Source: Escherichia coli
GTDB taxonomy: Bacteria; Pseudomonadota; Gammaproteobacteria; Enterobacterales; Enterobacteriaceae
Direction: 5' to 3' (one strand)
NCBI RefSeq assembly: GCF_041248615.1
Contig: NZ_CP158426.1
DNA: 64,000 nucleotides
The notes under the pieces were generated by a model, which was given only the letters and a program-made list of their open reading frames with translations, was not told where the DNA came from and made no database searches. A program made the position numbers and the translations under genes. The stretch's first letter is position 1, and each line of letters starts with the position of its first letter. Positions 5,422 to 5,842 of the stretch are shown in pieces.

Positions 5422-5842
5422 GGTTTATTCCTTAAATTATTTATGGTTTTATTCTGAGTGCAATCCATACTGATTCATAACCAGTGAATAAGATTTCCCC
5501 GAATAATCTATATAAATTAGCGAAGTCCTCTTCACTAATTAACCGTAAAATCCCGTACCAATGAAATATAAAAATAACCACCCACACAAATTTATTGCAA
5601 ATATTATTTATTATTGTATATACATCATTCACTGAACGTTCTCAAACTGCATACCTTAGAACCATCAATTAAAGCCACAACAAAAAAAATCGATTACTTT
5701 ATGTCGCATGACAAATATGAATTACATATTAATCAACCTTAAAAACAATCATCTCTTATAATTAACAGCATACCATGAGAAACACAAAATCAATTTACCA
5801 TGCATACCAGGAGCATAATTAACCTCTCACCGCAGGGCGAAA

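Follow-up and report, generated by a model that had tools for sequence, protein, structure and literature searches.

AT-rich flanks of the type bound by H-NS are a well-known companion of horizontally acquired genes, including the rhs genes of Escherichia coli. The ybbP-rhsD spacer of strain K-12 is one of 78 'promoter islands', defined as regions with at least eight PlatProm-predicted transcription starts per 100 bp over at least 300 bp, and every ChIP data set shows H-NS bound to it (Panyukov & Ozoline 2013, PMC3661553). Peaks flagged HNS were also recorded in the ybbP-rhsD and yncH-rhsE spacers by gSELEX with the RpoD holoenzyme (Shimada 2014, PMC3946193), and rhsA and rhsB are putative targets of BglJ-RcsB, which activates the H-NS-repressed leuO and bgl (PMC3950696). 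In Salmonella, SPI-6 is an H-NS-silenced island and the full-length rhs gene showed no transcription in 22 conditions; a reporter carrying the 200 nt upstream of rhs (P1) was inactive and the internal promoter P2 was active, the toxin tip being driven by internal promoters (PMC7043789). By analogy only, this literature would back a promoter and H-NS reading of the rhs-flanking DNA described here, whose sequence is an undescribed, lineage-restricted example of a familiar kind of feature.

The window, by which we mean the whole 64-kb stretch of E. coli DNA that was analysed, has its left end at the RhsE site of the chromosome, on the yncG-ansP side, and the stretch tested was 100% identical to strain CFSAN061763 and many others. 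Positions 5422-5842 (421 bp) form the exact gap between the stop codon of an ISAs1/H-rpt ORF (5843-5845, minus strand) and the ATG of an rhs gene, both genes lying on the minus strand. The earlier note had reported very low GC between the H-rpt stop and the rhs start, and both its coordinates and our ranking agree with this: at 30.9% GC (69.1% AT), compared to 49.5% GC (50.5% AT) for the whole window, the gap is the lowest-GC 421-bp stretch of the 64 kb (empirical rank 0.04%; the 30.2% minimum begins at 5409). The adjoining rhs DNA has 60-74% GC. No run of at least 65% AT in the window is longer than the one that covers most of the gap (5406-5835, 430 bp), and the TpA frequency of the gap (0.110) is the highest in the window (mean 0.049, rank 0.08% of tiles) and close to the composition-only expectation of 0.117. 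The note's 'many A/T tracts' held for mixed A/T runs, with 19 of at least six in the gap, and did not hold for homopolymers, as A or T tracts of at least four showed no enrichment there (6 vs a mean of 4.9 per tile). Its labels 'H-rpt' and 'rhs' were borne out by Pfam, which places DDE_Tnp_1 in the transposase gene and RHS_repeat, DUF6531 and RHS in the rhs gene.

Three parts make up the gap. The first 10 bp next to the transposase gene (5833-5842, minus) are the outer end of the right inverted repeat of the IS and the sole IS-derived part; these are followed by 399 bp of unique DNA (5434-5832, minus; 30.1% GC), hereafter the spacer, and by a 12-bp translation-initiation block, AAGGAATAAACC (5422-5433, minus), with the Shine-Dalgarno sequence AAGGA 7 nt ahead of the ATG. 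This block is the only piece of the gap common to other rhs genes. Similarity to the 5' ends of other E. coli rhs genes (24,498 places) ends at 5421-5433, as does similarity to the rhs loci of Citrobacter, Phytobacter, Trabulsiella and Enterobacter.

The rhs toxin gene itself (1210-5421, minus) is full length, encoding 1403 aa (Pfam RHS_repeat, E 1e-76), and its product is named 'RHS element core protein' in RefSeq. The Shine-Dalgarno block and an intact 1403-codon ORF are kept in 143/143 full-length copies. No Pfam family matched the last ~150 residues of the protein, which form the toxin tip (rhs C-terminus, ~1210-1700). A gene for a 161-aa pentapeptide-repeat protein (728-1213, minus) overlaps the rhs stop by 4 nt and is likely the immunity gene of rhs. 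Pentapeptide-repeat proteins are often DNA mimics, and an immunity partner of this type hints that the toxin tip targets a DNA-binding enzyme. A counterpart of the Salmonella internal promoter P2 could be aligned at ~1710-1815 (minus), just ahead of the PxxxxDPxGL motif; its hexamers are TATGAT...TATAAC here vs TTGACG...TACAAT in Salmonella.

On the other side of the gap, the ISAs1/H-rpt transposase gene (5843-6979, minus) is a pseudogene, labelled 'ISAs1 family transposase, internal stop' in RefSeq, that is split by a stop codon at 6698-6700 into ORFs 5843-6700 and 6701-6979. The whole defective element spans 5833-7150 and is bounded by terminal inverted repeats (CAGGGCGAAATCATGAAGGCCCGCA / CAGGGAAAAAGCATGAAAGCCCGCG) that match at 20/25 positions, the best of 200 shuffles reaching 18. 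K-12 ydcC is homologous up to the same GCCCTG that marks the IS end at 5833. We discarded the idea that the gap is part of the ISAs1/H-rpt element, since the inverted repeats put the IS end at 5833, and also a variant in which the IS reaches into the spacer via a 13-nt direct repeat (5620-5632 / 7098-7110), as the adjacent sequences are not inverted repeats. No target-site duplication was found at the element, and a K-12 match flanks it on one side only, beyond the left inverted repeat (7151-7187) and not beyond the right one; the IS therefore lies at a rearrangement junction. This ISAs1 variant was found solely in the same 144 genomes as the spacer.

Several further features surround the element. 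The 37 bp at 7151-7187, which abut its left inverted repeat, share 92% identity with a K-12 sequence that precedes the truncated rhsE of that strain by ~280 bp. Beyond lie a second AT-rich patch (7162-7468; 307 bp, at least 65% AT), situated between yncG and the IS, and yncG itself (within 7391-7997), a frameshifted pseudogene; K-12 yncH is absent here. An ISAs1/H-rpt-type element lies on either side of the pair formed by rhs and its likely immunity gene, at window 1-413 and at 5833-7150, and the two elements point the same way. The copy at 1-413 is truncated and frameshifted; over its left-end region (287-413) it shares 83% identity with 7026-7152.

The spacer occurs in 144 of 5,426 complete E. 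coli genomes (~2.7%), at identities of at least 99%, in single copy and without an annotated feature. No match was found in plasmids and phages, nor in any of 21 rhs loci from species-representative genomes. A metagenome scan with a spacer 22-mer returned nine contigs, all 100% identical across the spacer. The copies in these 144 genomes and nine contigs are essentially invariant, so conservation says nothing on function. Local alignment of the spacer to seven other rhs upstream spacers gave scores within the shuffle range, and these sequences are not alignable. An origin as a remnant of K-12 yncH/rhsE upstream DNA was likewise set aside, as blastn at word size 7 recovered only 37 bp, beyond the IS. 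Six-frame fragments of the spacer gave no Pfam or NCBIfam match of note.

Two independent IS1 insertions were observed in the 411 bp at 5422-5832, formed by the spacer and the Shine-Dalgarno block. One, at 5625/5626, is found in strain NMBU_W05E18 (L003 7288-8001), where an IS1-flanked rearrangement took out rhs. The other, at 5564/5565, lies on the metagenome contig OFRY01002918.1 (L028 1-49), with the right end of IS1 facing rhs 143 bp before the ATG. This contig had been considered a diverged spacer homologue and proved to be an IS1 insertion joined to the core of another rhs paralogue. That core occurs in the same strains as the spacer, and the join is either a real recombination or an assembly chimera.

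To place the locus among other rhs genes, 21 loci were compared, all from species-representative genomes and each carrying a close relative of the Rhs N-terminus. In 12/21, vgrG ends 32-90 bp before rhs (Pfam-confirmed). Eight adjoin housekeeping genes, with rhs spacers of 38-55% GC, and the remaining one, the only AT-rich locus, is an E. coli-type contig with the arrangement of strain PK13 (H-rpt, small AT-rich ORFs, then rhs). No match to VgrG was found in the 3 kb upstream of the window rhs by tblastn with the E. albertii protein. Judged by gene order, rhs here is severed from its usual vgrG operon. With vgrG absent upstream, any dedicated rhs promoter would have to be situated in the gap, and rhs transcription must either begin within the spacer or reach rhs by way of the defective IS.

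Among other E. coli rhs genes, the K-12 rhsD spacer has 430 bp and 28% GC, the K-12 rhsA, rhsB and rhsC spacers have 202-242 bp and 35-37% GC, and strains PK13 and IGC have 31% GC over the 400 bp upstream of rhs. The earlier note had implied that AT-rich upstream DNA is general to rhs genes, which does not stand: the rhs spacers of other species have 37-55% GC. On the composition of the loci compared, very AT-rich upstream DNA is no general rhs trait, but is recurrent at vgrG-less E. coli rhs genes. Three contigs of the comparison (L008, L026 and L027) carry vgrG-rhs or H-rpt-rhs arrangements of E. coli/E. albertii type (88-100% amino-acid identity) and are filed under Collinsella sp. and Akkermansia muciniphila MAGs; this placement is very probably binning contamination.

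Promoter-like sequences directed towards rhs were few and weak. A consensus scan of the minus strand at 5422-5842, with a cut-off of 9/12, found no sigma70 site facing rhs. The only site in the gap to reach at least 9/12, TTAACA-17-CAAAAT (5762-5790, plus; PWM 9.31), points away from rhs into the IS. The best rhs-facing candidate is the weak TTGCAA-18-TATTTT (5571-5600, minus; PWM 8.6), whose -10 ends 149 nt before the ATG. Two other weak candidates are TTGAGA-17-TATATA (5617-5645, minus; PWM 7.35), whose -10 has no T at position 6, and TTGATT-15-TGnTATGCT (5767-5793, minus; PWM 8.54), an extended -10 with a short 15-nt spacer. By the sigma70 PWM used, which is approximate and crude, the best score on the rhs strand (8.6) was below both the mean best score of dinucleotide shuffles (10.7 ± 1.4) and the 95th percentile of window tiles (10.6). 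Sites scoring at least 7 on the rhs strand occurred at 1.2 per 100 bp here compared to 0.7 in the K-12 rhsD island, a density that was not above shuffles. Because the K-12 rhsD island binds RNA polymerase and scores alike, the scan leaves room for weak silenced promoters. The spacer also shares with promoter islands the trait of flanking horizontally acquired DNA, namely rhs and the IS, in 144/5,426 genomes. The best sigma70 consensus match nearby, TTTATA-16-TATAAT (7269-7242, minus; 10/12), lies beyond the IS in the second AT-rich patch and faces both the IS and rhs.

Regarding H-NS, the AT excess over several hundred bp that marks its targets was found here (69.1% vs 50.5% AT; 430-bp run). 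Matches of 8/10 to the H-NS motif TCGATAAATT numbered five in the gap, compared to 1.57 ± 1.24 in shuffles and 0.66 per 421 bp windowwide, and none in the gap reached 9/10. Predicted H-NS binding is consistent with the AT content of the gap, its density of TpA steps and its near-matches to the motif. K-12 lacks the spacer, which therefore falls outside the published K-12 ChIP data. The suggestion in the earlier note of a promoter and H-NS-bound region thus stands as regards the position at the rhs 5' flank and the H-NS-preferred composition; it falls short as regards the promoter, with no sigma70 site of at least 9/12 towards rhs.

A further property of the spacer is its strand asymmetry. The rhs-sense strand of 5434-5832 carries 84 G and 36 C, a GC skew of +0.40 that is the strongest of all 400-bp tiles in the window, with T exceeding A. 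Sense-strand C depletion (+0.26 to +0.33) was also seen in three other long ~30% GC spacers at vgrG-less E. coli rhs genes (L037 1332-1761; L004 4201-4740; L005 4192-4636), and the four C-depleted spacers gave no alignment of these three to the window spacer or to one another. Such depletion fits long-term strand opening towards rhs, and deamination in open complexes has been proposed for promoter islands (PMC3661553). The G84/C36 skew could equally be that of decayed coding DNA. One speculative extension, which we regard as improbable though worth stating, is that the unrelated spacers of vgrG-less rhs genes (window, K-12 rhsD, PK13 and IGC) converged on ~400-540 bp, ~30% GC and C depletion because RNA polymerase is held in unproductive open complexes under H-NS, where cytosines of the non-template strand deaminate. 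The asymmetry would then be a footprint of long-term silencing, and the spacer a preferred landing pad for IS1 whose insertion could switch the toxin on. At bgl, IS1 insertion is known to switch the gene on.

On balance, we favour as fairly probable, from composition and by analogy with the described rhs loci, a reading in which H-NS coats or bridges a foreign AT-rich patch that has weak promoters only, and thereby silences the full-length rhs orphaned beside it. The spacer would be horizontally acquired non-coding DNA and make up all of the 5' flank of a vgrG-less rhs at the RhsE site. As vgrG is gone and the IS gene upstream is a pseudogene that cannot be translated, rhs would be transcribed only from weak starts in the spacer or by inefficient read-through. 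The composition of the spacer (69% AT over 430 bp, top TpA and five 8/10 motif matches) would make it an H-NS nucleation patch, and the bound H-NS could form a bridge to either of two other AT-rich stretches, the patch 7162-7468 and the region of the toxin tip and immunity gene (35-1008). Such bridging would occlude or trap RNA polymerase, so that under ordinary conditions the full-length toxin gene would stay silent. In this the spacer would act like the K-12 ybbP-rhsD and yncH-rhsE spacers, to which RNA polymerase and H-NS bind with little transcript. The density of weak promoters, similar to that of the K-12 rhsD spacer, supports the H-NS model. Against it, the patch is short (~430 bp) and abuts 66% GC DNA, limiting H-NS spread, the best TCGATAAATT match is only 8/10 and homopolymer A-tracts are unenriched. 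Promoter-like sites are also fewer and weaker than composition predicts, so there is perhaps nothing to silence.

We consider possible but doubtful a competing explanation, namely that the spacer is an inert recombination scar, foreign DNA left over at an IS-mediated junction, with rhs promoterless and only internal toxin-tip promoters mattering, as in Salmonella. The lack of any sigma70 site of at least 9/12 facing rhs, together with a best PWM score under the shuffle mean, agrees with it, as do the signs of a rearrangement junction at the IS (no target-site duplication and a one-sided K-12 match) and the lack of any sequence variation among spacer copies that could show selection. The Salmonella precedent of a silent P1 reporter and an active internal P2 (PMC7043789) points the same way, but the P2 counterpart in this rhs has other hexamers. 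Harder to reconcile with a scar is the retention of the Shine-Dalgarno block and the 1403-codon ORF in 143/143 full-length copies, and K-12 spacers of like composition bind RNA polymerase and H-NS (PMC3946193, PMC3661553). Moreover, DNA of this kind would gain an H-NS patch whether selected or not. In another reading the spacer would belong to the IS, or rhs would be driven from the IS, by an outward promoter or by read-through. The IS and rhs share an orientation, only a weak hairpin stands between them (5842-5825, -7.3 kcal/mol) and the best nearby sigma70-like site (7269-7242, 10/12) precedes the IS on their common strand. Yet the inverted repeats end the IS at 5833, 10 bp beyond the stop codon, and hybrid sites with a -35 in the inverted repeat had PWM scores of only 5.8-6.7 or less. 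Long untranslated read-through transcripts are exposed to Rho termination, and with the internal stop in the transposase gene read-through would give such a transcript. We hold a role of the IS to be very unlikely.

Two explanations place a product within the spacer itself. An orphan ORF of 63 codons with a GTG start (5441-5632, minus) and a hydrophobic centre could encode a small accessory factor cotranscribed with rhs. It lies on the rhs strand, ending 19 nt before the rhs ATG, and some GenBank submitters call it as a gene; by a rough estimate, ~0.4 open frames of this length (66 codons) would be expected by chance in 31% GC DNA, which makes its presence mildly surprising. Among 5.8 billion proteins, however, its only relative is the identical E. 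coli sequence, and it belongs to no Pfam or NCBIfam family, carries no PGAP annotation in RefSeq, lacks a convincing Shine-Dalgarno sequence ahead of its GTG start and has no equivalent at rhs orthologues elsewhere. The ORF is probably not a gene, and we give a real small protein very little credence. We attach the least to a structured RNA, such as a leader, attenuator or small RNA controlling rhs. The candidate is an 11-bp inverted repeat, AATTAGTGAAG/CTTCGCTAATT (5514-5541, minus), ahead of a U-rich stretch; its stem would have -11.4 kcal/mol (local z -3.4), and a putative 201-nt leader folds at z -1.96. The hairpin was rejected as a significant RNA once all positions of the region were counted, as equally stable hairpins occurred in 37% of shuffles, and Rfam gave no match at E <= 1 on either strand of 5000-7600. 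All copies of the spacer are identical, leaving no variation for covariation analysis or phylogenetic footprinting.

The only possible control region of this rhs is a lineage-specific AT-rich patch of the H-NS-silenced type. This matters little past annotation, though for Rhs-mediated competition in this clone the spacer would be the place to look for derepression. Were the strand asymmetry of unrelated rhs spacers general, it would offer a sequence-only signature of long-term silenced promoters.

Compared to known systems, the locus most resembles the K-12 ybbP-rhsD spacer. Both lie directly upstream of the ATG of a vgrG-less, full-length rhs, are close in length and GC content (430 bp and 28% in K-12 vs 411-421 bp and 30-31% here) and share both a G>C skew on the rhs-sense strand and sigma70-like sites that are weak only. 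The two have no sequence similarity (local alignment 29 vs 25 ± 3 in shuffles), and their upstream neighbours differ, the housekeeping gene ybbP at K-12 rhsD and an IS here. Binding of RNA polymerase and H-NS is published for the K-12 rhsD spacer, whereas for the spacer here it would be a prediction. The K-12 yncH-rhsE spacer occupies the same locus beside yncG-ansP, is AT-rich (36% GC) and is flagged as an RpoD-binding and HNS site (PMC3946193), but its homology is limited to the 37 bp that here lie beyond the IS (7151-7187). In K-12, rhsE is a 5'-truncated pseudogene and yncH is present, whereas here rhs is full length and yncH is missing.

More distant parallels exist in other genera. As in the xenogeneic silencing of the Salmonella SPI-6 T6SS and rhs genes, an AT-rich flank accompanies a horizontally acquired toxin gene; the Salmonella rhs lies in a T6SS island downstream of vgrG-type genes, whereas the gene here stands alone behind an IS, at a housekeeping locus. 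Finally, the rhs N-terminus is 76-94% identical in amino acids to those at the vgrG-rhs junctions of E. albertii, Citrobacter, Trabulsiella and Phytobacter, and the Shine-Dalgarno block, AGAAGGAA...ATG, is the same as at these vgrG-rhs loci. The canonical junction measures 32-90 bp with 37-48% GC, whereas here 399 bp of unrelated 30% GC DNA and an IS replace vgrG.
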